Counted from the first letter of the stretch, positions 8,118 to 48,083 are shown. The stretch: 64,000 nucleotides of DNA from an uncultured Actinomycetes bacterium (GCA_963717405.1 OY970333.1:899645-963644), one strand, 5' to 3'. Notes: generated by a model not told the origin, from the letters alone. Translations and numbers: made by a program.

Positions 8118-9144
8118 GGCTCACCTCCCTCACCCAGCCCGCGAGGATCGACCGCGCGTCGTGCGGGCCGGGACTCGCCTCGGGATGGAACTGAACGCTT
8201 CGCGCGCGCTCGCCGGGGAGGTCGATCCCTTCCACGGTGCCGTCGTAGAGCGAGACGTGGGAGACCGCGTCTCCGCTGCCCCGGACGCCGAACCCGTGGT
8301 TCTGCGAGGTGACGAGCACACGGCCGGTCGCGAGCTCGAGCACGGGATGGTTGGCGCCGCGGTGTCCGAAGGGAAGCTTGAACGTCTCGAGCTCAGCGGC
8401 GCGCGCAAGCAGCTGATGGCCGAGGCAGATTCCGAGCACCGGCACCAGGCCGAGCAGCCCACGCACGGTCTCGACCTCTGCGTCGAGAGCAGCCGGATCT
8501 CCGGGGCCGTTCGAGAGGAGGACGCCGTCGGGTCGCTCGGCGAGCACGTCTGCGGCACTCGTCGAGTGCGGCAGCACACGAACCGAGGCGCCTGCTGCGA
8601 CGAGCCGTCTCACGATCGACCGCTTGCAGCCGTAATCGAGCAGCGCAACTCGGGTCAGCCCGTTCCCGATCGTGTAGGGCTCGGCCGTCGAGACCTCGGC
8701 GGCGAGGGCGCGGCCCGCCATCGGAGGCTCCGCGGCAAGCTGGGCCTCGACCGCTTCGACCGAAGCCTCGCCCGCCACCAGCGCGGCCCGCATCGCGCCG
8801 TGCTCCCGGAGGCGGAGCACCAGGGTGCGGGTGTCGACCCCGTCGAGTGCGACGATGCCGTGGGCGGCGAGCCACGCCGGCCATTCGCGCCCGCCCGCGC
8901 GGCGCATGACGACGCCGCGGGCGTGCGGCCTCTCGGACTCGAGCCTGCTGTCGTCGACGCCGTAGTTGCCGACCATCGCAGCGGTGAACGTGACGATCTG
9001 GCGCGCGTAGCTCGGGTCGGTGACAACCTCCTGGTAGCCGGCCATCGAGGTCGTGAAGACGGCTTCGCCGAGCGCGATCCCGTCGGCGCCGGCCGAGCGG
9101 CCGGGGAAGACCGACCCGTCCTCGAGGAGCAGGAAGTCCCTCAT
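8101..9144 (-). CDS. carA: Carbamoyl-phosphate synthase small (glutaminase) subunit
   Basis: ATG 9144-9142 overlaps the pyrC stop (ATGA). 'GICLGHQLL' holds the catalytic Cys, and 'VQFHPE' is present. The first ~163 aa of the 510-aa track ORF are an out-of-frame overlap with pyrC. Confidence 0.9.
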
Positions 9145-10442
9145 GCCTCGAAGGCCGTCCGCCCGGCCGCGATTGTCAGCGCCACCTTGCCGGTCAGGGT
9201 GTGGCCGAGGAGCCAGGAGTTCGTGGACTTCGAACGGAAGCTCCGCTCCTCGGGCCGCCAGGCGGCGTCGAGATCGAGGAGGACGAGGTTGGCCGGCGCG
9301 CCGACGGCAACCCTCGGCCGCTCGAGGCCGTAGATCCGCGCCGGGCCGGCGCTCATCCGCTCCAGCAGGGTCGAGAGGCCGACCAGGCCGGGTTTGACGA
9401 GTCGCGTGTGGAGCGCCGCGAAGGCGGTCTCGAGGCCCGTGACGCCGAAGGGCGCCGCCTCGAACGGAACCTCCTTCTCGTGCCGGGCGTGCGGCGCATG
9501 ATCGGTCGCGACGGCGGCGATCGTCCCGTCGCGCAGACCGGCTACGAGCGCCTTGCGGTCCTCGTCCGCCCGAAGCGGCGGATTCATCTTCAGGTTCGGG
9601 TCGAGGCTCCGAAGTGCCTCGTCCGTCAGACACAGGTGATGCGGGGTCACCTCGCCGGTCGCCGCGACGCGAGCCGCCTGAGCGCGGGAGAGCGCCTCCA
9701 CGGATTCGCGCGAGGAGAGGTGCAGGAGGTGGAGCGGACGGCTCTCGTAGCCCGCCAGCGCCAGGTCGCGTTCGACCATGACGCTCTCGGCGACCGACGG
9801 GTAGCCCCCGAGGCCGAGCTCGGCCGAGACCTCGCCCTCGTGCATGTGCCCGCCGCGCGACAGCGTCGGCTCCTCGCAGTGGAGCGCGAGCGGCCGCCCG
9901 GCGGCGAGCGTGTACTGGAGCGCCCGCCGGAGGAGCGACGCGGATCGCACCGGCTGTCCGTCGTCTGAGAAGGCAGTAGCCCCCGCCTCGGCGAGCTCGA
10001 CCATCTCCGTCAGCTCCTCCCCCGCCTGCTCCTTGGTGATGGCCGCGACGAAGCCGACAGGAACCTCGGCCTCGGCGCGGGCGCGCTCGACCAGCGAGCG
10101 GAGGACGGCGGCGGAGTCCACGACCGGCTCCGTGTTCGGCATGGCGAGGATGGCGCAGTACCCGCCGGCTGCGGCCGCCGAGGTGCCCGACCGGAGATCC
10201 TCCTCATCCTCGCGTCCGGGCGTCCGAAGGTGGACGTGGGGGTCGACGAACGCGGGCGCCAGCACGAGGCCTTCCGCGTCGACGACGTGATGCTCGTTCG
10301 TGTCGAGCCCCGTGCCGAGCGCGGCGACGACCCCACCGTCGATTCTGACGTCGAGGATCGCGTCGACTTCCTCTGTCGGGTCGATGACGCGCGCGCCCCG
10401 GATCACGATGTCGTCGTGTCCCTGCTTGCCTGCGAGCATCAC
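9141..10442 (-). CDS. pyrC: Dihydroorotase
   Basis: 433 aa with 'VDPHVHLRTPG' and 'ATDHAPH' metal ligands. Confidence 0.9.
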   Translation of the reverse strand: MMLAGKQGHDDIVIRGARVIDPTEEVDAILDVRIDGGVVAALGTGLDTNEHHVVDAEGLVLAPAFVDPHVHLRTPGREDEEDLRSGTSAAAAGGYCAILAMPNTEPVVDSAAVLRSLVERARAEAEVPVGFVAAITKEQAGEELTEMVELAEAGATAFSDDGQPVRSASLLRRALQYTLAAGRPLALHCEEPTLSRGGHMHEGEVSAELGLGGYPSVAESVMVERDLALAGYESRPLHLLHLSSRESVEALSRAQAARVAATGEVTPHHLCLTDEALRSLDPNLKMNPPLRADEDRKALVAGLRDGTIAAVATDHAPHARHEKEVPFEAAPFGVTGLETAFAALHTRLVKPGLVGLSTLLERMSAGPARIYGLERPRVAVGAPANLVLLDLDAAWRPEERSFRSKSTNSWLLGHTLTGKVALTIAAGRTAFEA

Positions 10443-36722: not shown

Positions 36723-37319
36723 TCACGCCGCGTTCAACTCCTTGCGTGCGCGGACTTGCTCCCGCTCGACCTCCGCACGGACCGGACAGCTCACGACGTG
36801 GTCGTTCACGAGCCCACAGGCCTGCATGAGCGCATACGCCGTCGTCGGCCCGACGAACCGAAAACCGCGACCCTTCAGCTCCTTCGCGAGCGCCGCCGAT
36901 TCCGGTGTCACCGCCGGTAGATCCTCGAGCGAACGCGGCGCGGCTCTCTCCGGCCCGGGCGCGAACGACCAGACCCGCAGCGAGAGCCCGCCCCCGGCGC
37001 GCAGTTCGACCACGGCTCGCGCATTTGCCACGGTTGCCTGAATCTTTGCCCGGTTCCGAACGATGTCCGCGTCCCCGAGCAAGCGCTCCACCTCACGGGC
37101 TCCGAACCCCGCCACGGCCTCGGGATCGAAGCCGGCGAACGCCCGCCGAAAGCCCTCGCGCTTCCGCAGGATCGTCGCCCACGAAAGCCCGGACTGGAAC
37201 GCTTCCAGACTCAGCCGCTCGAAGAGCCCAACCTCTTCGGTGACCGGTCGACCCCATTCCTCGTCGTGGTAGGCGGCGAGCTCGTCGCCGACAGCCCAGG
37301 CGCAACGCAAGCCGCTCAT
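36723..37319 (-). CDS. tag: DNA-3-methyladenine glycosylase I
   Basis: 198 aa with 'YHDEEWGRP', 'FQSGLSWATILRKRE' and 'MQACGLVNDHVVSC'. Confidence 0.9.
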   Translation of the reverse strand: MSGLRCAWAVGDELAAYHDEEWGRPVTEEVGLFERLSLEAFQSGLSWATILRKREGFRRAFAGFDPEAVAGFGAREVERLLGDADIVRNRAKIQATVANARAVVELRAGGGLSLRVWSFAPGPERAAPRSLEDLPAVTPESAALAKELKGRGFRFVGPTTAYALMQACGLVNDHVVSCPVRAEVEREQVRARKELNAA

Positions 37320-39136
37320 CCGAGGAGCTCGAGCGCCGCCTCCGGCTCCTTGAAGGGCGGAATGACGTAGATGCCGGCAGCCCGCTCCCGTGCGGCCTCG
37401 ATCAGCTCTCGCGCGACCTCGAGACCCACCGCGGCCGCGTCCGGACCCGCGTCGGACAGCCGCTGTTGAACATTCTCGGGAATCACGATTCCCGGCACCT
37501 CGTTGTGGAGCCGGAACGCGAGCTCGTAGCTGCGCACGGGCCAGATCCCGACGAGGAGCGGGATCGGCGACTCGCCGCCGAGCGCATCAAGAAAGCGGTC
37601 GAGATAGGAGGCGTCGAAGAGCGCCTGGGTCATCGCAAACCGCGCGCCGTTCTCGACCTTACGGCGAAACCGTTCGAGCTCGTGGTCGAGTCCCTCCGAG
37701 GATGGGTTGACCGCGACGCCGACGTAGAAAGAGGTGGGCGCGTCGATCGCCTTCCCCACATAGTCCTCCCCCTCGTTCAGGCGCGCGAGGATCGCCGTCA
37801 GGCCGATCGCGTCGACGTCATAGACCCCGCGTGAGCCCGGGTAGTCGCCCACGTGCGGGGGGTCGCCGGTGACGACGAGGACATTTCGGATCCCGTCCGC
37901 ATGGGCGCCGAGGAGCTGCGACTGCAAGCCCATGATGGACGAGTCGCGCGGAGTCACATGCGGGATCGTCTCGAGACCGACCAGCCGCTCGATCGACGCT
38001 GCCGCCATCAAGGCCGAGAGCCGCGCCCGCGCCATCGGGTTGTCGTTGATGTCGACTGCGTCCACGCGGCCCGAGTCCTTCAGGAGTTGCGAGACGCGCA
38101 GCATGTTCTCCGTATTGGTTCCCTTCGGTGGATCCAGCTCGACGGATACCACCCACTCTTTCGCCTCGAGCTTCTGCTGGAGCCGGGTCTTCGCGACCGA
38201 GCGGACGATGGGCACGACGATGTCGCGCTCGAGGACGGAGAGCGTGAGGCGCGGCTCCCGGCCCTCCTCGACAGCCTGGCGGATGGCGGCGATCTGCGAC
38301 GGCGTCGTGCCGCAGCAGCCGCCGATCACGCGCGCGCCGAGCCGTCGCGCCTGAGCCGCGAACTCAGCGAAGTAGTCGGGCGTCGCATTCGGGTACACGA
38401 GCCGCCCGCCCGTTCTGCTCGGCATGCCGACATTCGGCTGGGCGGTCAGCATCAAGCCGTTCTCGCCGACGAGCTCCGACATCTCGGCGAGGGCGGCAAG
38501 GGCGGCCTGGGGACCAAGCCCGCAGTTCGCGCCGAGCGCAGTCAGCCCCGCACCCCGAAGCCGCTCGGCCGCGTCCCGGGCGGAAACGCCGGCCAGAGTT
38601 TGCGCATCCTCGTCGAAGGTGAGCTGAGCGATGATCGGGAGGCTCGAGACGCTCTTCACGGCCGCGATCGCGGTCTCGAGCTCGTGGAGCTCGAAGAACG
38701 TCTCGACGAGAAAGAGGTCGACGCCCCGTCCTTCGAGGAACGCGGCCTGCTCGCGGAAGACCTCGTACGCATCCTCCGCCCCGCTCGTGCCCTCGAGGTC
38801 TCCGAGCGGCCCGATCGAGCCGCCGATGAGAACCGGCGAGCCCGCCACGTCCCGCGCCTCGCGCGCGAGCTTCACGCCGGTTTCGACGATCTCCTTCAGC
38901 CTGTCGTCGAGGAGCTGCGCCGAGAGCTTGCGCCGGTTCGCGCCGAAGGTATTTGTCTCGATGAGCTCGGCGCCGGCCTTGATGAACGCCAGGTGGACGC
39001 CCACGACGGCCTCGGGCGCCTTCAGGTTCGCTTCCTCGGGACAGCGGAGGCGGGGCACGCGCGTCGTCAGAAGCGCGCCGGTGCCGCCGTCGCCCACGAC
39101 GACAGGACCGTTTCGCAGGCGTTCGAGCACGTCCAC
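37316..39136 (-). CDS. Bifunctional homocysteine S-methyltransferase / 5,10-methylenetetrahydrofolate reductase (YitJ-like)
   Basis: 606 aa. The N-terminal S-methyltransferase domain ends in 'GGCCGTTP'. The C-terminal MetF domain has 'VSVELDPPKG...VTPRD...VVTGDPP'. Confidence 0.85.
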   Translation of the reverse strand: MDVLERLRNGPVVVGDGGTGALLTTRVPRLRCPEEANLKAPEAVVGVHLAFIKAGAELIETNTFGANRRKLSAQLLDDRLKEIVETGVKLAREARDVAGSPVLIGGSIGPLGDLEGTSGAEDAYEVFREQAAFLEGRGVDLFLVETFFELHELETAIAAVKSVSSLPIIAQLTFDEDAQTLAGVSARDAAERLRGAGLTALGANCGLGPQAALAALAEMSELVGENGLMLTAQPNVGMPSRTGGRLVYPNATPDYFAEFAAQARRLGARVIGGCCGTTPSQIAAIRQAVEEGREPRLTLSVLERDIVVPIVRSVAKTRLQQKLEAKEWVVSVELDPPKGTNTENMLRVSQLLKDSGRVDAVDINDNPMARARLSALMAAASIERLVGLETIPHVTPRDSSIMGLQSQLLGAHADGIRNVLVVTGDPPHVGDYPGSRGVYDVDAIGLTAILARLNEGEDYVGKAIDAPTSFYVGVAVNPSSEGLDHELERFRRKVENGARFAMTQALFDASYLDRFLDALGGESPIPLLVGIWPVRSYELAFRLHNEVPGIVIPENVQQRLSDAGPDAAAVGLEVARELIEAARERAAGIYVIPPFKEPEAALELLG

Positions 39137-39185
39137 GGGGCCAGTCTAGGCCGGAGTCAGAGGCCGGCCGCGCCCGCGGGTGGCT

Positions 39186-39803
39186 CTATGGCACGAGGTC
39201 GGTGTGGTCGGCCCTCGCGCTCTCGTGATCTCGCTCTCGCGGCCGTACCAGAACGTCCTCGAGCTGAGCGGCGACGTCGCGCAGGCTCTCGAAGGCGCGC
39301 TGCCGCCGGTCGTCGAGGAGCCGGATCTCTTGACGGAGATCGTCGGCTCGCCGACGCGCCTCGGCCTCGATGTCACGGGCCATGGCCTCGGCCGCCTCGC
39401 GCATCGCCCGCGCCTCCTCCTGCGCTTCCGCCCGGGCGCGCTCGGCCTCCTCGGCAGCCTCACGCCGCTCCTGCGCCGCATAGGCGTCGACGGCGAGGCG
39501 GATGTCCGAGGCGTAATCGTCGGCCTCGCGCCGAGCGCGGTCAGCCTCGTTGGTCAGCTCCGAGATTCGCTCCTGCGCGACCTGCTCGGAACGGGAGCGA
39601 ATGGACGCCGCCTCGTCGCGCGCTTCGGCGCGCACCGCGTCGGCCGCCTCCTCTGCCGCTCGCAGGATGGCATCCACCTTGTTGCCGACGTCACCGAGAC
39701 GGCGCGATGGCGCCTGGTTCTCTTCACGCCTTGTGTCTGGCTCCAGCACAGGAATGCTCCCCCTCGTCGCTTGCCGCGGGCGCGAACCTACCCGATTGGA
39801 CAT
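39186..39803 (-). CDS. Hypothetical Ala/Glu/Arg-rich coiled-coil protein
   Basis: 205 aa of continuous heptad-like 'AEEAADAVRAEARDEAASIRSR...'. The start is uncertain. Confidence 0.4.
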   Translation of the reverse strand: MSNRVGSRPRQATRGSIPVLEPDTRREENQAPSRRLGDVGNKVDAILRAAEEAADAVRAEARDEAASIRSRSEQVAQERISELTNEADRARREADDYASDIRLAVDAYAAQERREAAEEAERARAEAQEEARAMREAAEAMARDIEAEARRRADDLRQEIRLLDDRRQRAFESLRDVAAQLEDVLVRPRERDHESARADHTDLVP

Positions 39804-39839
39804 CGATAGGCAACGCAGACGCCCTGTACCCGGGCGGGT

Positions 39840-40538
39840 TTACACGGCGTCGCACACCCCGAGCCGGGCCGCGCGACGCTGCACGTCTGCGGCGTACTGG
39901 AGGACAGCGCCGGTCGGGGCGCCGCCGGATTTCTCCACGGCTCCGGGACCCGCGTTGTACGCCGCGAGCGCGAGCGCCAGGTCGCTGCCGTAGCGCTCGA
40001 GGAGACGCTCGAGGTACGTGGCCCCCGCGAGCACGTTCGAGGCCGGCCGCCGCGCGCCGTACCCGACCTCACGCGCAGTCGCAGGCATGACCTGCATGAG
40101 CCCGAGCGCCCCTGCCGAGGAACGCGCGCCTGCATCCATTGCGGACTCCTCCCATGCGACCGCGGCGAGCAGGGACAGGGGCACGCCCGTCTTGAGACTC
40201 GCCTCTGCGAAGGCGCTTCGAAAGCGCGACGGGATGGGGCAGCCGGCGGGAACGACCGCTGCTCCCGACCCCAGATTTACCCGAACAGACCTTGCGCCCG
40301 ACTGGGAGGGATCCGAGTCCGCAGCCGCGAGCGAGAAGCCCGCCCCGGTGACTGCTGCTGCAAGCAAAGCGCCGAGCGCGGCGATCCGGAGGCGGCTCGG
40401 GCGGCCGAGCCTCGACGGGCGACGACGACGAGCGTCGGCCAGCTCCCGCGAGCGCTCGAAGGCAGCGTCCATCTCGGCGAGGGTGTCTGGGGCGTCGGCC
40501 ACGGGGAGCCGGTCCCGTACCCGCCTCCTGCGCGGCAA
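39840..40538 (-). CDS. Lytic transglycosylase (SLT domain), secreted
   Basis: 232 aa with a membrane anchor 'IAALGALLAAAVTGAG'. The catalytic region is 'AVAWEESAMD...GALGLMQVMPATA...AAYNAGPGAV'. Confidence 0.8.
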   Translation of the reverse strand: MPRRRRVRDRLPVADAPDTLAEMDAAFERSRELADARRRRPSRLGRPSRLRIAALGALLAAAVTGAGFSLAAADSDPSQSGARSVRVNLGSGAAVVPAGCPIPSRFRSAFAEASLKTGVPLSLLAAVAWEESAMDAGARSSAGALGLMQVMPATAREVGYGARRPASNVLAGATYLERLLERYGSDLALALAAYNAGPGAVEKSGGAPTGAVLQYAADVQRRAARLGVCDAV

Positions 40539-40565
40539 AACGGGCAGTGGCGCGAAAGGTTGGGC

Positions 40566-41927
40566 CTAGAGCCGTCGGCGGACGATGCGGGAGACCTCGG
40601 CTGAGACGTTCCAGCGTGTCACGTAGGCCTTCCCGTCGAAAAGCTCAGTCGTCCAGAACCAGTAGTCGGTCTCGGGGCGCGCGACGGTGACGAGCTCGCG
40701 AACGGGTCCGCCCGCGAGCTCGCGGACAAAGAGCGTCGAGCCGCTCGGCAGGTCGCGCACCCAGGCCACCCGAGTCCTTGAGAGGGCCGGGTTGGCGAGG
40801 CGAGCGATCTCCGTCTTGAACGGAGCGGATCGAGCCTCCGTGGAGATCCGGTAGACGACGATCCGCGACCCCCTCGGCCCTGCGACGTGCCAGGCGATTC
40901 GATCGCCCGCGATCGTGGGCCGCCCGATCTCGACACCGTCGGGCTTCGAGGCGAGGAGGCGCTCGGTGTTGTCCTCCAGGTTGTAGAGGTGGAGCGTGTA
41001 GCGCTCGTGGCCGCCGTGATCTGGCCTGTTCAGGAAGGTGCGTTCGTGGCCGTAGAATTTCCTGTAGACGAGCCAGGGCCACTGCAACGCAGGCTCCTCG
41101 GCCGGGCCCGAGAGGCGCAAGACCTCCTCGGCGGTCCGCCAGCGGACGACTCGGACTCCGGCTGCGTCTTCGTAGGCGAGCACGCCGCGGTGGACGGCGG
41201 GTGACTCGGCGTCGGGGAAGACGACGTTTGGGCTGCCGTCTGCGGGCCGGACAACGACGCTCGGCGTCCCCGCGAAGCGCTGCGTGTAGGCAAAGGCCGG
41301 CGCATGCGCCGACGGGTCCATCTGGTCTCCGGGCCCGAGCGGCATCACGCCCGCACCGGCGACCGGGGACGCCGCGAGCAGGCACGCACAGGCGCCGAGC
41401 GCGACGGCGTTGACCCGCAAGACCGTGCTGCGCTGCGCAGACAGCCCTTCGGCGATCGCAGCCGGATCCGCACCGCGACGCGCCGGCAGCAAGAGCACGA
41501 CCGCCCGTCCGACGCCGTAAAGCGCGAACGCGACGGCGCCTGCGACCGGTCTTCCCAGAGCGAGAGCGGCGGCGCAGGCGACCCAGAAGGTCGCCACCGG
41601 CTGATACGTGAAGACGCCCAGGCCGAGTCCGGCTCCGTAGCCGACCGACCAGACGGGAAGAGGCAGCTCGGCCCGCCAGCGCTCGGGCACCTGGCGGCGC
41701 GACTGCGGGAGCGGCACCCGGAGGACCCCGGCCTCCCGAAGCGTCCCGAGGACGGCGAGAACGAGCGCCAGAACGAGAGCCGGCCCCGTGCCAACAGCGG
41801 CTCCGGCGAGGCCGAGCACGGCTCCGAGCGCGGCCGACGCGGCCACGGCGCCGAGCGCGAAGAGCGCGAGTGCGACGAGCTGGCGTTTGCGAGTCCCGCA
41901 CCCGGCGGGCGTGATGGTCTCCACCAT
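40566..41927 (-). CDS. Polytopic membrane domain (about 6 TM) fused to a ~260-aa extracytoplasmic repeat/beta-rich domain; third gene of the Mau-like module
   Basis: 453 aa. There are six hydrophobic segments in residues 15-195. After these come repeated patterns such as 'RVVRW', 'RIAWHV', 'RIVVYR' and 'RVAWVR', suggestive of propeller-like blades. No family is assigned. Confidence 0.6.
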   Translation of the reverse strand: MVETITPAGCGTRKRQLVALALFALGAVAASAALGAVLGLAGAAVGTGPALVLALVLAVLGTLREAGVLRVPLPQSRRQVPERWRAELPLPVWSVGYGAGLGLGVFTYQPVATFWVACAAALALGRPVAGAVAFALYGVGRAVVLLLPARRGADPAAIAEGLSAQRSTVLRVNAVALGACACLLAASPVAGAGVMPLGPGDQMDPSAHAPAFAYTQRFAGTPSVVVRPADGSPNVVFPDAESPAVHRGVLAYEDAAGVRVVRWRTAEEVLRLSGPAEEPALQWPWLVYRKFYGHERTFLNRPDHGGHERYTLHLYNLEDNTERLLASKPDGVEIGRPTIAGDRIAWHVAGPRGSRIVVYRISTEARSAPFKTEIARLANPALSRTRVAWVRDLPSGSTLFVRELAGGPVRELVTVARPETDYWFWTTELFDGKAYVTRWNVSAEVSRIVRRRL

Positions 41928-41998
41928 CGAGAGCCCTCAGGGGCTCCAGGCGCCCGAGATGCCCGCGACGAGTGCGGCGGTGCAGACCGCGGCCTCGA

Positions 41999-42601
41999 TC
42001 AGCACGGGAGCCCGGTGTCGTAGTACATGACGCAAAACACGTTTCGGGGCGCGTAGCAGTAGCCGCGGAGCGACGCGTCACCGTTGATCCGGATCCTGCT
42101 CTTGGAGCAGCAGTCGACGAGCTTGCGGATCTGGTCGTCGCAGCAGCGGTACCAGGCGCCCTGGATGATCGCGTCCTTGTGGCCGTAGCGCTCCTCGACC
42201 CACTCGTTGCAGATACGGGTTCGGGGCCCCTTCGGGAGCCGGCGGCCGTCAGGTCCGCGCAGACGCCGGCCTTCAGCGTCGATCGGGTAGCCGTTGGCGT
42301 TCACGAGCCGGCCGAGGTTGTCGATCGGCCTGCCGTCTCGCGGGCGGAGCGGGTAGCCGGCGGTGTCGATCCGGGGGAGGCGGTACGGGCTCGGGCACGA
42401 GCCGGTCGTGTAGATGTGGCCGCAGAAGTGGTAGGCGGACGCGTCCTCGGGCTTGACGGCGGCCGCGACGGCGCCTCCGCCGACGATGCCGAGCGCCGCG
42501 GCCCCGAGCCGCCCCAGGAACGAGCGTCGCGTCATCCCGGCGGCGAGGCCCGTGGCGAGAGCCTCACCCGCCTCCGCGAGGAGCTCGTCAGGCCGCCGCA
42601 C
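41999..42601 (-). CDS. Tat-signal, Cys-rich homologue of methylamine/aromatic-amine dehydrogenase light chain (MauA-like)
   Basis: Twin-arginine signal 'MTRRSFLGRLGAAALG' (alternative start ATG 42535). The mature ~145 aa contain 10 Cys. 'HFCGHIYTTGSC', 'CNEWVEERYGHKD' and 'WYRCCDD' align by eye to MauA 'RHCSIDGNIC', 'ASWVASCYNPTDG' and 'AYRDCCG'. Confidence 0.7.
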   Translation of the reverse strand: MRRPDELLAEAGEALATGLAAGMTRRSFLGRLGAAALGIVGGGAVAAAVKPEDASAYHFCGHIYTTGSCPSPYRLPRIDTAGYPLRPRDGRPIDNLGRLVNANGYPIDAEGRRLRGPDGRRLPKGPRTRICNEWVEERYGHKDAIIQGAWYRCCDDQIRKLVDCCSKSRIRINGDASLRGYCYAPRNVFCVMYYDTGLPC

Positions 42602-43469
42602 GCACGCTCCTCGCTGTTCCGACGCTGATCAGGCCCTCGAGCTGCTCGAGGGTGTTGACGAGCCCCTTCGCGGCGACGACCCCGTCGACGACGTGGACGA
42701 CGAACGGGCTCCCCGGTACGTTCCAGATGCGGAACGCATCGGGCTCCCGAGCCTCGTCCACAACGTGGACCGAGACGCCGTCCCGCCCGAGCGCCAGGAC
42801 GCCCGGCAAGAGCTCGTGGCAGAGCCGGCACGTCGGCGAGACAAAGGCGATGAGCTCGGAGCCACGGCTCCCGAGCGCAGCGAGCCCGGGAGCCCGGGAG
42901 CCGAGCTCGGGGCCCTCTCCCTCCAGCTCGAGCGCCCCCTGGGCGGGCCCGATCCGGAGGTGCAGAAGCCCGACCTGGCGGTAGAGCGCGAGGACGAGCA
43001 CGGCGAGGGCGAGCACGGCGAGGGCGAGCACAGCGACAGCGGCCAAAAGCCCGGCCTCACGGGAGATCGGCGGGGATCCGTAGGCGGTCGCCGCGGCGGC
43101 GAGGCCGGCGAGGCCGGTAAAGGCGAGCGCGCGGGCGAGGAGGAAGCCCGTCGAGCGTTCCGCGCCACCGAAACAGCCACAGCGAAGCCGTTGCACCCCC
43201 GAGGCGCGTACGCGTACGACTGCAGCCACGAAGACGAAGCCGAGCCCGGTCGCGGCGAGCGAGGCCGCGAGAGGCGCGACACCGGCAAGGAGCAGACCCC
43301 CCAGGACTGCTTCGGCCCCGACCAGCGTGGCGGCGGCGGGCCCGGCGAGCTCTGCTCGGAGCCCGTAGCCGCGCATGACCTCCGGCAGGTCCGCGCGGGA
43401 GCGCGCCTTGGCCGCGGCCGCGGCAAGCAAGACGAGTCCGACCCCGAGGCGGAGGGCGACGTCCACCAC
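42588..43469 (-). CDS. MauE-type membrane protein fused to a MauD-like thioredoxin-fold domain
   Basis: 293 aa. The N-terminal part is multi-TM with 'RLRCGCFGG' (MauE CGCFG motif). The C-terminal part has 'FVSPTCRLC' (CxxC) and 'AKGLVNTLEQLEGLI' (MauD-like tail). Confidence 0.75.
   Translation of the reverse strand: MVDVALRLGVGLVLLAAAAAKARSRADLPEVMRGYGLRAELAGPAAATLVGAEAVLGGLLLAGVAPLAASLAATGLGFVFVAAVVRVRASGVQRLRCGCFGGAERSTGFLLARALAFTGLAGLAAAATAYGSPPISREAGLLAAVAVLALAVLALAVLVLALYRQVGLLHLRIGPAQGALELEGEGPELGSRAPGLAALGSRGSELIAFVSPTCRLCHELLPGVLALGRDGVSVHVVDEAREPDAFRIWNVPGSPFVVHVVDGVVAAKGLVNTLEQLEGLISVGTARSVRAAA
42988..43032. repeat. 15-bp in-frame tandem repeat, 3 copies, inside the MauE-MauD gene
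   Basis: The units are GCGAGGACGAGCACG / GCGAGGGCGAGCACG / GCGAGGGCGAGCACA. They encode the (LALAV)n part of the transmembrane helix 'AVAVLALAVLALAVLVLAL'. Confidence 0.8.
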
Positions 43470-43518
43470 GTTCAGGTTAACGCTCGTTCCGGCGGGTTTG
43501 GCAGGACTCTCAGAATCC

Positions 43519-46293
43519 TTACGGGTCGACGGAGGGGCGGATCTGGGACGTCTCGAAGAGGTGCAGGAACGCCTCGACTACGCGAGGGTCGAACTGCGTG
43601 CCCGAGTGCTCCCGGAGCCGCCGGAGCGCTTCCTCGACCGGAAGCCGGCCGCGGTAGGGCCGGTCGGTCGTCATCGCGTGGAAGGCGTCGCAGACGAGGA
43701 TGATCCGAGACTCGATGGGAATGCCCTCGGCCTTCCGCCCGTCCGGATAGCCGCCGCCGTCGAAGCGCTCGTGGCAATGGCGGACGATCGGCCTGACGTC
43801 GGCGAGACGGACGATCGGTGCCAGGATCCGCTCGCCGAGCTCCGGGTGGAGCTGCATGGTCTGCCGCTCCTCCTCGGTCAGCGGACCCGGCTTCAGGAGG
43901 ATCTCCGACGGAATGCCGATCTTCCCGATGTCGTGAAAGTGGGCGCCGAGCTCGAGCCGCTTCAGGCCTGCCGGGTCGAGGCCGAGCTCCGAGCCCACGC
44001 GGAGGGCCATGTCGGTGATCGCCCGCGTATGGGAGGAGGTGTCCTCGTCCCGTGCCTCGAGCGCGTTGGCGAGCGCCTCGACCGTTGAGAGGAAGGTCTG
44101 CTCGAGGCTCTCGTAGTTCGTCGCATTCGCGATCGCGAGCTTGGCCTGGTGCGCGATCCCGTCGAGGAGCCGCATCGTGCGGTCCGAGAGGCGCGGCTTC
44201 CGTGCATCCTTCATGACCGCGACGATGAAGCCCTTCCGCCCGCCGTCGAGAGGGATCGGCGCAACGGCGAACCGTCGTCCGTCGTCGGCCGAGTCGATAT
44301 CCGGGAGGCCCTCGAGCTCCTCGGGCGTCAGCGTGAAGGGCCGCTCGCGCCTGACGAGCCGCTCCACCGCCGAGGAAGGGATCCGGAGCTGCTCGATCCG
44401 CGACCGCTCCTCCCCGTCGTAGCCCCAGAAGGCTCGCACCGAAATGTCGCCGCCGGTTGTCTCTTGCATCCAGAACGAAGTGCGGGACGAGCCGAGAATC
44501 TTGGTCGTCTGCCCGACGAGCCGCTCGAGGACCAGGTCGAGATCCTCGGCCTGAGCGAGCTGACGCGAGAGCTGGAGGAGCGCGTTCGCGATCTCGGCGC
44601 TCTCCTTCGCGCCCTCGGCCTCCCGCCGCTGCGCTTCGTAGAGCCGCGCGTTCTCGATCGCGACCGAGGCGTGGCCGGCGAGTACCTCGAGGAGACGCAC
44701 GTCGTCGTCGTCGAACTGGCCCACGCCGAGCTTCGAGATCACGACTACGCCGATGATGCGGGCGCCGTAGCGCAGGGGCACGGCGACCATCGACTCCTCG
44801 ATGTCGTCGGTGCCCGGAATCGTGACGGCGAACGCGCACTCGAGCGCGTTCTCGACGAGGAGGGACTCGCCGGTCACGCCGACCCGTCCGGTGATCCCCT
44901 CGCCGAGCTTGCAACGGAGCGCCTCGGCGGTCTCCTCTCCGTACACGTCGGCGTCGTCGCGGAACGCGACCGGAATGAGATCGTCGTGACCCTCGCGCAC
45001 GTAGACACGGCACGCGTGGTAGTCCAGGAGGCCGCGAAGCTCGTTCACGATCACCTCGCCGATCCTGGTGACGTCGTTCAGCCGGTTGAGCTTGCCGGCG
45101 AGGCTCTGGAGCATCTTGAGGTGGGCGATGGAGCGCACGTCGCGTGGGCGCGGCGACTGGATCTCCGGCCGGCCCTCGGTCAGGTCGGCGAAGACGACGG
45201 CCTGGTCCTTGCCCTGGGACTTGGCGGTCATCATCGCCGTCTCCGCGTAGGCGACGAGCTCGCGCGGATTCGTGGCGTCCCCTGGCCCCTCGGCGATCCC
45301 GGCCGAGACGGTGATCCTGCCTACGCCCTCTAGCTCTGCGCGGGCGAGCCGCGCTGCGATTCGCTCGGCGAGCCCCAGCGCAGAGGCCGAATCCGAGGAG
45401 GGCAGGACGACTGCAAACTCCTCGCCACCGATCCGGCAGACGATGTCGGAGCCCCGGACCACGGAGCGCAGAATGTCCCCGAGCGCGACGAGGACGTGGT
45501 CTCCCGTCCCGTGGCCGTGGACGTCGTTCACCTTCTTGAAGTCGTCGATGTCGAGCATGAGGATGCTGACCAGGTCCTGGGCCCGGCTGGCCCGTGTCAG
45601 CTCGGCGCGGATCCGGTCGTGGAAGAAGCGGTGGTTCCAGAGCCCGGTCAGGGAGTCGGTCTGAGCCTGCTGCTCGAGCTGGGCACGGATCTCTGCGTTG
45701 TCGAGCGCGAGCGCGACGGCGTCACCGCAACGCTTCACGAGCTCGAACTCCTCCTCGGTGAAGCGAGCGCCCTCGCCGAGGCGGTGGACGTTCAGGGAGC
45801 CCTTGACGGTGCCGCGCGCGACGAGGGGGACGACGATCATCGACTCGGGCTCGTCGTCGGGCGTGCCGGGTACGACGGTGAGGCGCGGGTCGAGGTGCGC
45901 GTCGTTCACGAGGACGGCCTCGCGTCGCTCGACCGCCCAGCCCGTGATCCCTTCGCCGAACGCGAGCGGCGACTCCATGATCTCGGCGGCCCAGCTGTCG
46001 CGGGCCATCTCGGGGACGAGCAGGCGGCGCGCCTCGTCGGTCCGGTAGACCGTCAGCGTGTCGCAGGGCACGAGGTCGGACACCGCGTCGAAGATGAGGT
46101 CGAGCAGGTCGTCGAGGCCCTGCTCGGAAAGGAGGTCGTGGAAGACGTCCGCCAGACGGAGGTACGGCGCGAGGGTGCCCTCGTGGTGCTCGCGCCCCTC
46201 TTCGAAACGCCGCGGCACGCGGCGGCCCCCGGCGCCTGGGAACCGGAGCAGGCGGGCCGTGCGGCCCGACGACGTCATGGCAGGATCCTCCAT
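43519..46293 (-). CDS. GAF-GGDEF-GAF-GAF-HD-GYP multidomain c-di-GMP signalling protein
   Basis: An active-site-type 'RIGGEEFAVVLP' is present. The C-terminal HD-GYP domain has 'HTRAITDMA...HFHDIGKIGIP...HHERFDGGGYPDG'-like motifs ('HCHERFDGGGYPDG'). The likely start is ATG 46293 or 46278. The track start at 46428 would overlap the divergent polX. Confidence 0.85.
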   Translation of the reverse strand: MEDPAMTSSGRTARLLRFPGAGGRRVPRRFEEGREHHEGTLAPYLRLADVFHDLLSEQGLDDLLDLIFDAVSDLVPCDTLTVYRTDEARRLLVPEMARDSWAAEIMESPLAFGEGITGWAVERREAVLVNDAHLDPRLTVVPGTPDDEPESMIVVPLVARGTVKGSLNVHRLGEGARFTEEEFELVKRCGDAVALALDNAEIRAQLEQQAQTDSLTGLWNHRFFHDRIRAELTRASRAQDLVSILMLDIDDFKKVNDVHGHGTGDHVLVALGDILRSVVRGSDIVCRIGGEEFAVVLPSSDSASALGLAERIAARLARAELEGVGRITVSAGIAEGPGDATNPRELVAYAETAMMTAKSQGKDQAVVFADLTEGRPEIQSPRPRDVRSIAHLKMLQSLAGKLNRLNDVTRIGEVIVNELRGLLDYHACRVYVREGHDDLIPVAFRDDADVYGEETAEALRCKLGEGITGRVGVTGESLLVENALECAFAVTIPGTDDIEESMVAVPLRYGARIIGVVVISKLGVGQFDDDDVRLLEVLAGHASVAIENARLYEAQRREAEGAKESAEIANALLQLSRQLAQAEDLDLVLERLVGQTTKILGSSRTSFWMQETTGGDISVRAFWGYDGEERSRIEQLRIPSSAVERLVRRERPFTLTPEELEGLPDIDSADDGRRFAVAPIPLDGGRKGFIVAVMKDARKPRLSDRTMRLLDGIAHQAKLAIANATNYESLEQTFLSTVEALANALEARDEDTSSHTRAITDMALRVGSELGLDPAGLKRLELGAHFHDIGKIGIPSEILLKPGPLTEEERQTMQLHPELGERILAPIVRLADVRPIVRHCHERFDGGGYPDGRKAEGIPIESRIILVCDAFHAMTTDRPYRGRLPVEEALRRLREHSGTQFDPRVVEAFLHLFETSQIRPSVDP

Positions 46294-46394
46294 CGAACGC
46301 GCGCGCGCGCCGGAATCGGCACTCGAGGGAGCATCGTGAGGTTCACCTCCTGCCTGAATAGCTCCGCCGGGGGAACCAGAGGCTACGACGCGGC

Positions 46395-48083
46395 GTGAGC
46401 GACTCCTCCCCCGAGCCTGCCGAAACACTCACCAACGCAGCCGTTGCGGAACGGCTCGAGGCCTTCGCCGGGCTCCTCGAGCTGGCCGGTGCGAGCCCGT
46501 ACTCGACGCGCGCGTACCGTCGGGCGGCGGAGCTCGCCCGCGCGGCTCGACGCACCGCTCGCCGAGCTCGTCCGGTCCGGCCGCGTGCGCGAGCTCCGCG
46601 GCATCGGCCCGGGAATCGAGGCGAGGCTCCGCGAGCTCGTCGAGACCGGACGGATCGCCGAGCTCGAAGAGCTCGAGCGCGAGGTCTCCCCCGCCCTGGT
46701 CGGCGTCGGCCGCTTGATCGGCATCGGACCGCAGCGCATGGTGGAGATCGGCCGGACGCTCGGGATCCGGACCGCAGCGGAGCTTCGGGAGGCCGCGCGG
46801 GCAGGCCGGCTCGCGGCCGTTCCCGGGATCGGCCCGAAGACGGAGGCCCGTATTCACGAGGCGCTCGAGCGGCCGACGGAACCGCGCCCGCCTCGCGCCC
46901 TCCTCCTGAACCGGAGCCGGCCGCTCGTCGAGGAGATCGCCGCGGCTCTCGGCGGAGAACCGGCCGGCGAGCCACGCCGCTGGCGCGACGCATCGGAGCG
47001 ACTCGCCGTGGTCGTATCGCCGAGGACCCGGCGCCCGCCTTCGCGGCCTTCGGCGCACTTCCGCAGATCGTCGCCGTCGTGGCGCGACGGAGGAGCGGCG
47101 CGCGACAGGCGTCACCGTCGAAGGCGTCCCGGTCGAGCTCGTCGTCGCGGAACCCGGACGGTTCGGCACCGAGCTCGTGCGCGCGACGGGCTCCCCCGCG
47201 TACGTGGCCGAGCTCGGGCCGCTGCCGGATGCACCAGACGAGGAGGGCGTCTACCGCCGGCTCGGCATCCCGTGGTGCCCGCCCGAGCTCCGGGAGTCGC
47301 CCTTCAGGGGCGAGCCACCGCGTCTCCTCGAGCTCTCCGACCTCCGCGGCGACCTCCACTGCCACACGACGTGGTCGGACGGCACGCGCCAGCGTCCTCG
47401 AGATGGCTGCGGCCGCACGCGAGCGCGGCTACGAGTACCTCGCGATCTGCGACCACACGCCCAACGTTCGCGTCGTGCCCGGGCCTGGACGCAGATGCGA
47501 TCCGCCGCCAGGGAGAGGAGATCGCGGCCGCGAACGAGGAGCTCGCCCCCTTTCGGCGTTCTGCGCGGCGACCGAGTGCGACATCCTGCCCGACGGGTCG
47601 CTCGACCTCCCGACGACGTCCTCGCCGAGCTCGACTGGGTGCAGGCCAGCCTGCACGCGGGCCAGCGGCGGCCGCGGCGGCGAGCTGACGAAGCAGGTCG
47701 TCGAGGCCGTGCGACACCCGTTCATCTCGTGCGCTCAGCCACCCCACCGGCCGGTCTGATCAACCACCGGCCTCCGAACGCGCTCGATCTCGACGAGGTG
47801 TTCGAGGTCGCCGTCGAGACCGGAGATCGCGCTCGAGGTGAACGGCCTCCCAGACCGGCTCGACCTGATCGGGGAGAACGTGAGGCGACTCGATCGCGGA
47901 CGCAGGCGTTGGGATCGTGGTCTCGACCGACGCACATTCGTTCGCGGGCTCGGGAACATGCAGCTCGCAGTGGCGACGGCACGCCGGGGGTGCGACTCGC
48001 GGCTGCCGACGTCCTCAACACGCAACCGCTCCCGGAGGTTCTCCCGCCCGCGGCTGACCGCGGGCGCCTCGACCAGGTGGTGA
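46395..48083 (+). pseudogene. polX: Family X DNA polymerase with PHP domain, disrupted by a dozen or more frame changes
   Basis: Recognisable PolX/PHP segments alternate among all three frames. Examples are 'NAAVAERLEAFAGLLELAGASPYSTRAYRRAAEL' (frame of 46395), 'LRGIGPGIEARLRELVETGRIAELEELE...VPGIGPKTEARI' (frame of 46444), 'VELVVAEPGRFGTELVRATGSPAYV...LHCHTTWSDG' (frame of 47177), 'ASVLEMAAAARERGYEYLAICDHTPN', 'TECDILPDGSLDLP', 'DDVLAELDWVQASLH', 'LINHRPPNALDLDEVFEVAVETG', 'ALEVNGLPDRLDL' and 'GLGNMQLAVATARRG'. The 3' end is uncertain. Confidence 0.8.

Follow-up and report, generated by a model that had tools for sequence, protein, structure and literature searches.

We have examined three consecutive genes on the minus strand of a 64,000-nucleotide stretch of DNA from an uncultured Actinomycetes bacterium (GCA_963717405.1 OY970333.1:899645-963644; the whole stretch is referred to here as the window). 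An original prediction made from the sequence had described these genes, which together span positions 40566-43469, as an orphan, cut-down relative of the mau cluster that matures methylamine dehydrogenase (MADH). For brevity we call the gene at 42588-43469, and its product, P1, that at 41999-42601 P2, and that at 40566-41927 P3. Open reading frames (ORFs) of 293, 200 and 453 amino acids (aa), respectively, occupy exactly these coordinates. We find that the three genes form a genuine unit that is conserved across the actinobacterial class Thermoleophilia. The unit encodes a predicted MauE-thioredoxin fusion (P1), a predicted exported protein with ten invariant cysteines (P2) and a protein modeled as a membrane domain joined to a beta-propeller (P3). 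The features of the three genes are as follows.

42588..43469, minus strand: P1, a MauE-thioredoxin (MauD-like) fusion (ORF, PF07291, TIGR02661 below its cutoff, hydropathy)
43092..43460, minus strand: MauE domain of P1, residues 4-126, comprising transmembrane (TM) helices TM1-TM4, with K21 and E53 (Pfam match)
43173..43181, minus strand: C97-G-C99, the putative CXC active-site motif of P1, followed by F100-G101, in the TM3-TM4 loop (sequence and ortholog conservation)
42993..43049, minus strand: TM5 of P1, residues 141-159, the counterpart of MauD's N-terminal membrane anchor (hydropathy, start of the TIGR02661 alignment)
42591..42992, minus strand: predicted thioredoxin-fold domain of P1, residues 160-293 (C214-R-L-C217 at 42819-42830; cis-Pro loop P252-G-S-P255)
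41999..42601, minus strand: P2, of an unnamed family, a twin-arginine translocation (Tat) leader plus a 144-aa mature domain (ORF, homolog search)
42434..42601, minus strand: leader of P2, residues 1-56, with the twin-arginine motif at 42512-42532 (alignments, Tat-signal model)
42002..42433, minus strand: mature P2, residues 57-200 (alignments of the family)
40566..41927, minus strand: P3, a fusion of a membrane domain and a beta-propeller (ORF, AlphaFold2)
41358..41927, minus strand: membrane domain of P3, residues 1-190, distantly DsbD_2-like (DsbD_2 matches, Cys conservation)
40569..41330, minus strand: modeled six-bladed beta-propeller of P3, residues 200-453, Cys-free (AlphaFold2, Foldseek)

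A three-gene unit of the Thermoleophilia

The G+C content at third codon positions of P1-P3 is 0.86-0.92; the window as a whole has about 70% G+C. Because this value is typical for the genome, and because each gene has hundreds to thousands of homologs, we take all three to be real genes. They are collinear, in the order P1-P2-P3, in 80 of 82 loci from Gaiellales, Solirubrobacterales and Miltoncostaeaceae, and both exceptions are cut off by contig ends; P1 is present at all 82 loci and P3 at 80. When species-representative genomes were scanned, a P2 homolog turned up in at least 578 of them, and the named sources of such homologs are Thermoleophilia or unclassified actinobacterial metagenome-assembled genomes (MAGs), with the exception of two MAGs labeled otherwise. 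P2 and P3 represent two unannotated families, conserved in at least this number of species genomes of a poorly studied class of soil actinobacteria. We found no description of the operon in the literature and no paper linking MauE with Thermoleophilia.

The genes are closely packed. The start of P2 overlaps the stop of P1 by 14 nt, an overlap of the same length recurs in 30 of 49 loci, and in Solirubrobacterales P2 and P3 overlap by 7 nt. There are also in-frame fusions of P1 and P2 (P0124, 453 aa, and P0122, 277 aa) that include the former Tat leader. We note that, if these are real and not frameshift artifacts, they pose a puzzle of topology, in that the h-region of the leader would follow a thioredoxin domain that is already external. 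A scan of positions 39000-47000 for promoters and terminators gave no promoter-like sites, and terminator-like sites were at the level expected by chance.

The genes that flank the trio vary by lineage while the trio itself stays. A fourth conserved member was sought and rejected, since each of the commonest neighbors is found in one lineage only: an S8 protease (19 loci), a VOC-fold protein, ABC transporter genes, a GGDEF-HD gene (12 loci), NadA, MurJ and YkuD. The original prediction had taken the SLT lytic transglycosylase gene next to P3 as a hint of a role in the cell envelope, but that gene lies beside the trio in only 2 of the 82 loci, in a single lineage, and we have rejected it as a member of the module.

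The three encoded proteins

Residues 4-126 of P1 match the MauE family (PF07291) with 65.9 bits, against a gathering cutoff of 27 (E = 5.5e-18), over positions 6-127 of the 128 in the model, and contain the RCGCFGG sequence. The C-terminal region had been called MauD-like. It matches the MauD model TIGR02661 with E = 1.7e-13 over residues 141-234, which correspond to model positions 2-107 of 189 and take in the fifth helix and the CxxC region, but its score of 50.5 bits is far below the cutoff of 188.6; by this comparison the region is MauD-like, with an anchor helix and a CxxC motif, and is not a MauD equivalog. The full Pfam match and the partial TIGR02661 match thus support the fusion architecture originally proposed for 42588-43469. 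Hydropathy predicts five TM helices, with the CXC loop between helices 3 and 4 and the thioredoxin domain after helix 5, a topology that would place both the CXC loop and the thioredoxin domain on the outer face of the membrane. The thioredoxin region itself matches sequence models weakly (Thioredoxin_3, E = 0.052), and a search of PDB sequences with this domain gave no significant match, the best being a weak one to DsbP (E = 0.048) aligned around the CxxC. It nevertheless has both the CxxC motif and the cis-Pro loop expected of a thioredoxin fold, and the hallmark residues C214, C217, P252, G253 and P255 are each kept in 54 of 54 orthologs. Residues 214-218 (42816-42830), C-R-L-C-H, also fit the heme-binding pattern CxxCH. 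We regard this as chance, since in orthologs the His gives way to other residues (CRLCA, CRLCR and the like).

Recent work bears directly on the likely activity of P1. A March 2026 preprint (bioRxiv 10.64898/2026.03.05.709764) describes MauE as a generalist DsbB-like disulfide-forming enzyme: stand-alone MauE proteins from two phyla (Calditrichota and Thermodesulfobacteriota) complement an E. coli dsbB deletion, the CXC motif is required for activity, and the family signature consists of the CXC, a conserved F-G after it, a Lys in TM1 and a Glu in TM2. That signature is complete in P1, where K21 is conserved in 53 of 54 orthologs and E53, C97, C99, F100 and G101 in all 54. The same preprint reports a fusion to a thioredoxin fold in 8.2% of MauE entries and the presence of MauA in only 10.2% of MauE-bearing species; P1 is thus like about 8% of entries in being fused, and like about 90% of MauE-bearing species in occurring without MauA. 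It differs from the MauE proteins studied there in that those assayed were stand-alone, with no fusions and none from Actinomycetota, and no conserved client operon was described. P1 also resembles the VKOR-thioredoxin fusions of Actinobacteria and Cyanobacteria, such as Synechococcus VKOR, which likewise have a four-helix quinone-linked core, a fifth helix and an external thioredoxin domain and amount to DsbB plus DsbA in one chain. In P1, however, the membrane family is MauE with CXC, not VKOR with CXXC, and the gene forms a tight operon with that of one particular Cys-rich protein. Homology and motif conservation together identify P1, at the level of sequence, as a one-chain oxidase and thiol-disulfide carrier.

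P2 bears a predicted twin-arginine signal, as had been proposed, with the motif T24-R-R-S-F-L-G, an h-region at residues 32-50 and a cleavage site at A54-S-A56 before Y57, and is therefore predicted to be exported by the Tat system. The leader begins with a conserved 22-aa n-region helix, and the family alignments show no variation at R25 and F28 and at least 90% conservation at R26; the UCR_Fe-S_N model, a Rieske Tat signal, is matched weakly by 4 of 17 members (best E = 0.0021). The ten-cysteine domain of the original prediction is also borne out, all ten cysteines being invariant across the family. The invariant residues of the mature domain are C60-G-H62, C69, C131, W150-x-R-C153-C154, D163-C164-C165, N173-G-D175, Y181-C182, C190 and C200, so that an even number of cysteines lies within 144 residues, with no heme motif. 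Residues 75-125 (42227-42379) carry short repeats of the forms G-Y/F-P-L/I-x-x-x-D-G-x-P-I/V-D and G-x-R-L-x-G-P-D-G, which recall YD-type beta-hairpins. The AlphaFold2 model of P2, built with 22 sequences, has a predicted local distance difference test (pLDDT) score of only 55, with moderate to high confidence confined to residues 80-130; the repeat stretch is the only part in which pLDDT exceeds 90. Foldseek comparison of this poor model with the PDB returned only noise.

The family to which P2 belongs comprises 2,233 clusters at 90% identity, among which none has a Pfam domain or a name, and 265 representatives at 50% identity. Many of the latter are wrong-frame chimeras, and all intact ones fall in one family with no tie to any named family. 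Numerous entries among P0137-P0261 are Arg/Ala-rich wrong-frame chimeras of the kind typical of frameshifted high-GC metagenome assemblies, and such chimeras inflate the apparent diversity of the family and give rise to spurious "fusions". P2 may be among the hypothetical signature proteins listed in 2019 as specific to Thermoleophilia (PMC6544083).

P2 had been said to align by eye to MauA, the MADH light chain, and we do not find this resemblance. The Smith-Waterman score of the pair is 32, against 30.6 +/- 5.0 for shuffled sequences (z = 0.29), and P2 matches neither the light-chain family PF02975 (Me-amine-dh_L) nor an NCBIfam light-chain model; at E <= 10, PF02975 is matched by none of 17 family members. 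The lack of a light-chain HMM match for P2 is an outcome that the original prediction had itself named as one that would defeat its idea. A profile of the P2 family searched against PDB sequences likewise found no light chain of MADH or of aromatic amine dehydrogenase (AADH) at E <= 10, whereas a search with a genuine MauA, run as a positive control, found 11 distinct MADH or AADH sequences. Alignment of P2 to the light chain with hhalign gave a probability of 0.2%. The cysteines are ten in number and differently spaced, against twelve in MauA, and the only invariant Trp is W150, W134 being lost in divergent members. With Pfam, NCBIfam, the PDB phmmer and profile searches, hhalign, the shuffle test and the Cys/Trp pattern all negative, we reject P2 as a MauA homolog, with the reservation that the P2 profiles are thin and its model poor, which leaves room for a remote resemblance of fold. 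The description of P2 as quinoprotein-like consequently loses its footing, as there is no light-chain homology and only one invariant Trp. On these comparisons, P1 lies inside the MauE family and P2 outside the MauA family.

The statement that MauB, MauG and amicyanin are missing agrees with what we see in the window and in the Pfam-annotated neighborhoods examined, which together made up the searched sequence. The window contains no ORF of the di-heme type with two CxxCH motifs, no P3 member matches the MADH heavy-chain model at E <= 1, and neither MauG nor a LodB/GoxB-type flavoprotein nor a QhpD-type radical-SAM partner lies beside the trio in any neighborhood examined. In one Gaiellales lineage (L002/L012) a cupredoxin gene (PF13473/PF00127; 5052-5579, minus strand) is located upstream of the MauE gene at a distance of about 1.6 kb; it is superficially amicyanin-like and is not conserved with the trio. 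The locus does share features with the mau clusters of Paracoccus and Methylobacterium, in which a CXC MauE and a membrane-anchored CxxC thioredoxin-fold protein are also found beside a Tat-exported, disulfide-rich small protein, and which likewise encode a beta-propeller protein. It differs from them in that MauE and MauD form one chain, P2 is not a MauA homolog, the P3 propeller is six-bladed, TolB-like and membrane-anchored whereas MauB is seven-bladed, and the trio is accompanied in the examined neighborhoods by neither MauG nor amicyanin nor other mau genes. To call the locus an orphan or cut-down mau cluster is therefore misleading, given that MauE is a generalist that occurs with MauA in only 10.2% of species (bioRxiv 10.64898/2026.03.05.709764). 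The broader idea of the original prediction, that this is a separate system for export and disulfide folding and not a split MADH, is supported. More generally, the combination of MauE and MauD should not be read as a sign of methylamine metabolism.

P3, which has 415 homologs, had been described as a multi-TM domain fused to a possible propeller, and structural modeling bears this out: residues 1-190 form a predicted helical membrane domain and residues 200-453 an all-beta domain modeled as a propeller. The AlphaFold2 model has a mean pLDDT of 85.8, with about 25 strands in the beta domain at pLDDT >90. With this domain, Foldseek retrieves the six-bladed propeller of TolB (root-mean-square deviation 4.0-4.3 A over 235-245 columns, probability 1.00) and those of S9 peptidases (acylaminoacyl peptidase, E = 2e-9). 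The likeness is one of fold only and does not amount to TolB orthology: sequence identity is 13-17%, P3 has neither the N-terminal domain of TolB nor a peptidase domain, a search of PDB sequences with a P3 profile gave nothing significant, and the propeller matches neither PD40 nor any other Pfam repeat. We also know of no Tol-Pal system in Actinomycetota, the phylum of Thermoleophilia.

The membrane domain of P3 contains an N-terminal M-V-E-T-I-T-P-A-G-C10-G motif, a loop with P-Q-x-R-R-Q-V-P-E-x-W and a helix with Y-G-x-G-L-G-x-G. Its similarity to DsbD_2 (PF13386) is weak: the protein of the window reaches 11.5 bits where the cutoff asks for 24.9, 12 of 41 members match with E < 1 (best 8.5e-4), and a single divergent ortholog passes the cutoff (26.0 against 24.9 bits, E = 9.9e-6). 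By this measure P3 belongs at best to the fringe of DsbD_2. Of the cysteines in the domain only the N-terminal one is near-universal, sometimes as a His, and conserved Glu residues lie beside it; C118 occurs in 27 of 48 orthologs, and in some orthologs the domain holds just one Cys. The likeness of P3 to DsbD/CcdA and DsbD_2 proteins thus lies in a multi-helix membrane domain with weak similarity; unlike them, P3 has no conserved relay Cys pair, is fused to a Cys-free propeller and not to a thioredoxin-like or immunoglobulin-like domain, and has a membrane domain that some lineages lack. We have rejected a CcdA-type thiol relay as the principal reading of this domain, because the relay pair is not conserved. 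In Solirubrobacterales (L052, L061, L068, L079 and L082; about 8400-10000), P3 carries an additional N-terminal helix, in which G-T-W-S-P-C-G-F-S immediately precedes the conserved M-I-E-T-I, and His, Thr or Ser stands where the Gaiellales type has Cys10. The Cys thus changes place and is not lost. In two Miltoncostaeaceae loci, L071 (8606-9409) and L074 (about 8620-9424, on the complete chromosome OY969782.1), P3 consists of a signal peptide and the propeller only, while a third member of that family, L077, keeps the membrane domain. The propeller is the only part of P3 found in every lineage, and because it remains where the membrane domain is lost we take it to be the invariant functional part of the protein.

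A putative oxidative-folding module

We lean toward the view, which we consider reasonably probable, that the trio is an extracytoplasmic module of Thermoleophilia in which P1 is a dedicated oxidative-folding enzyme, P2 its disulfide-rich client and P3 a propeller that partners the client. Its homology indicates that P1 would be a MauE-type, quinone-linked oxidase that forms disulfides and whose outer C-x-C loop would re-oxidize the CxxC of its own fused, membrane-tethered thioredoxin domain. The coupling of the genes suggests the next step. P2, read from an overlapping frame and probably translationally coupled to P1, would be exported via Tat, and P1 would then oxidize the ten invariant cysteines of this dedicated client to give five disulfides. 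This would parallel the service of MauE and MauD to MauA, although P2 is no MauA homolog. The strict co-occurrence of the genes and the survival of the propeller alone suggest, finally, that folded P2 would be held at the membrane surface by the P3 propeller, which in most lineages the DsbD_2-like membrane domain would anchor. We consider that the propeller probably partners P2, and for the P2/P3 pair we favor a binding or structural role in the envelope over catalysis. To our knowledge, MauA aside, no natural client of MauE is known, and P1 and P2 constitute a candidate natural enzyme-client pair. The trio may accordingly offer a system in which to study how MauE fusions choose and fold their clients and whether Tat substrates are oxidized after export.

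Several points weigh against this interpretation. The evidence that P1 acts on P2, and that P2 contacts P3, comes entirely from gene linkage and co-occurrence, and the structural model of P2 is poor (pLDDT 55). Export by Tat usually means that a protein folds or is loaded with its cofactor in the cytoplasm, which sits awkwardly with the formation of disulfides after export; MauA, however, is a precedent for the combination. The membrane domain of P3 is hard to account for: one Cys or His in it is near-universal and several Glu residues are conserved, and yet it is dispensable in Miltoncostaeaceae. Lastly, MauE has been described as a generalist (bioRxiv 10.64898/2026.03.05.709764), so that many clients are possible and the linkage may reflect no more than co-regulation.

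This last point leads to an alternative that we regard as unlikely but take seriously, namely that P1 is the housekeeping equivalent of DsbB and DsbA, and that P2 and P3 are two of many clients or are unrelated neighbors kept in place by inherited synteny. A generalist MauE (bioRxiv 10.64898/2026.03.05.709764) would suit such a role, the operon is near-universal in Thermoleophilia and lies among core genes (PdxS/T, YebC, MTHFR, LepA, MurJ and LeuS), and the 64-kb window, the part of the genome that was searched, showed no further DsbB, VKOR or DsbA. Inherited synteny, however, fits poorly with flanks that have been reshuffled between lineages around an intact trio with overlapping frames, with the existence of P1-P2 fusions, or with a P2 that is unusually Cys-rich, having ten invariant cysteines in 144 residues. 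The two interpretations are in any case compatible, and P1 may combine a general with a dedicated role. A reading in terms of metal handling, in which the DsbD_2-like domain of P3 would move a metal, for instance Cu or Ni, and P2 would be a Tat-exported metalloprotein or metallochaperone using its C-G-H and some of its cysteines, seems to us improbable. It draws on the weak relationship of P3 to DsbD_2, a family that goes by the InterPro name 'UreH-like' and is often fused to HMA domains; on the replacement of the N-terminal Cys of P3 by His in some lineages, beside invariant Glu residues, a pattern typical of metal ligands and not of thiol relays; on the typical use of Tat by cofactor-bearing proteins; and on the cupredoxin gene near the operon. 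That gene, however, occurs in one lineage only, in Miltoncostaeaceae P1, P2 and the propeller persist without the membrane domain, P2 matches no metal-binding family (Pfam and NCBIfam, scan of 17 members), and a disulfide oxidase as partner argues for oxidized cysteines and against free ligands.

The remaining alternatives seem to us more doubtful still. That P2 and the P3 propeller form a new, Thermoleophilia-specific, membrane-tethered extracytoplasmic enzyme or sensor, in which P2 bears a cofactor or cross-link made from its own residues, such as a Cys-Trp link at W150-Y-R-C-C, formed without MauG, is very improbable; if true, the pair would be a convergent analog of the light-chain/heavy-chain design of MADH. 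To a true MADH-like quinoprotein, with P2 as a MauA-like subunit bearing tryptophan tryptophylquinone or cysteine tryptophylquinone and the P3 propeller as the heavy chain of a new type of amine dehydrogenase, we give very little credence. The layout of the locus is indeed that of MADH, with MauE/MauD, a Tat-exported Cys-rich small protein and a beta-propeller, and the invariant W150 lies three residues before an invariant Cys-Cys pair. Against this stand the lack of MauA or AADH light-chain homology by Pfam, NCBIfam, PDB profile, hhalign (0.2%) and shuffling (z = 0.29), the ten cysteines in place of twelve and their other spacing, the lack of conservation of the second Trp, W134, the six-bladed TolB-like propeller where a seven-bladed one with a heavy-chain match (none at E <= 1) would be expected, and the absence of MauG and of LodB/GoxB-type and QhpD-type partners from the examined neighborhoods. 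Equally hard to credit is a pairing of oxidation with isomerization after the manner of DsbB/DsbA and DsbD/DsbC, in which the P3 membrane domain would be a CcdA-type transporter of reductant that corrects the disulfides of P2. Several P3 homologs are annotated as CcdA by the Joint Genome Institute (JGI), there are the weak DsbD_2 matches, and P3 of Solirubrobacterales carries W-S-P-C-G on its extra first helix. The two-Cys relay of CcdA/DsbD is, however, not conserved, there being one near-universal Cys/His and a C118 present in 27 of 48 orthologs; the propeller is Cys-free, with no second thioredoxin-fold acceptor; and the membrane domain is dispensable in some lineages.

Neighboring genes

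Upstream of P1, and ending 49 nt from it, the window contains a gene on the minus strand (43519-46428) for a 969-aa protein with three GAF domains, a GGDEF domain and an HD-GYP-type HD_5 domain. It may be cotranscribed with the trio in this genome; it lies outside the conserved module, accompanying the trio in 12 of the 82 loci, those most closely related. On the other side, the SLT lytic transglycosylase gene (39840-40538, minus strand) starts 27 nt after P3 and is followed by a gene for a DivIVA-like coiled-coil protein (39186-39803, minus strand). Other cell-wall genes occur near the trio elsewhere, with MurJ in L083, the L,D-transpeptidase YkuD in L084 and the S8 protease in 19 loci, and any envelope theme among the neighbors is loose and unproven. 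Further along the window, positions 37316-39136 (minus strand) encode a 606-aa fusion of a homocysteine S-methyltransferase domain and MTHFR, assigned by Pfam matches in the L001 and L002 orthologs. In Gaiellales the stretch downstream of the trio holds this fusion gene together with Tag, PdxS, PdxT and YebC.

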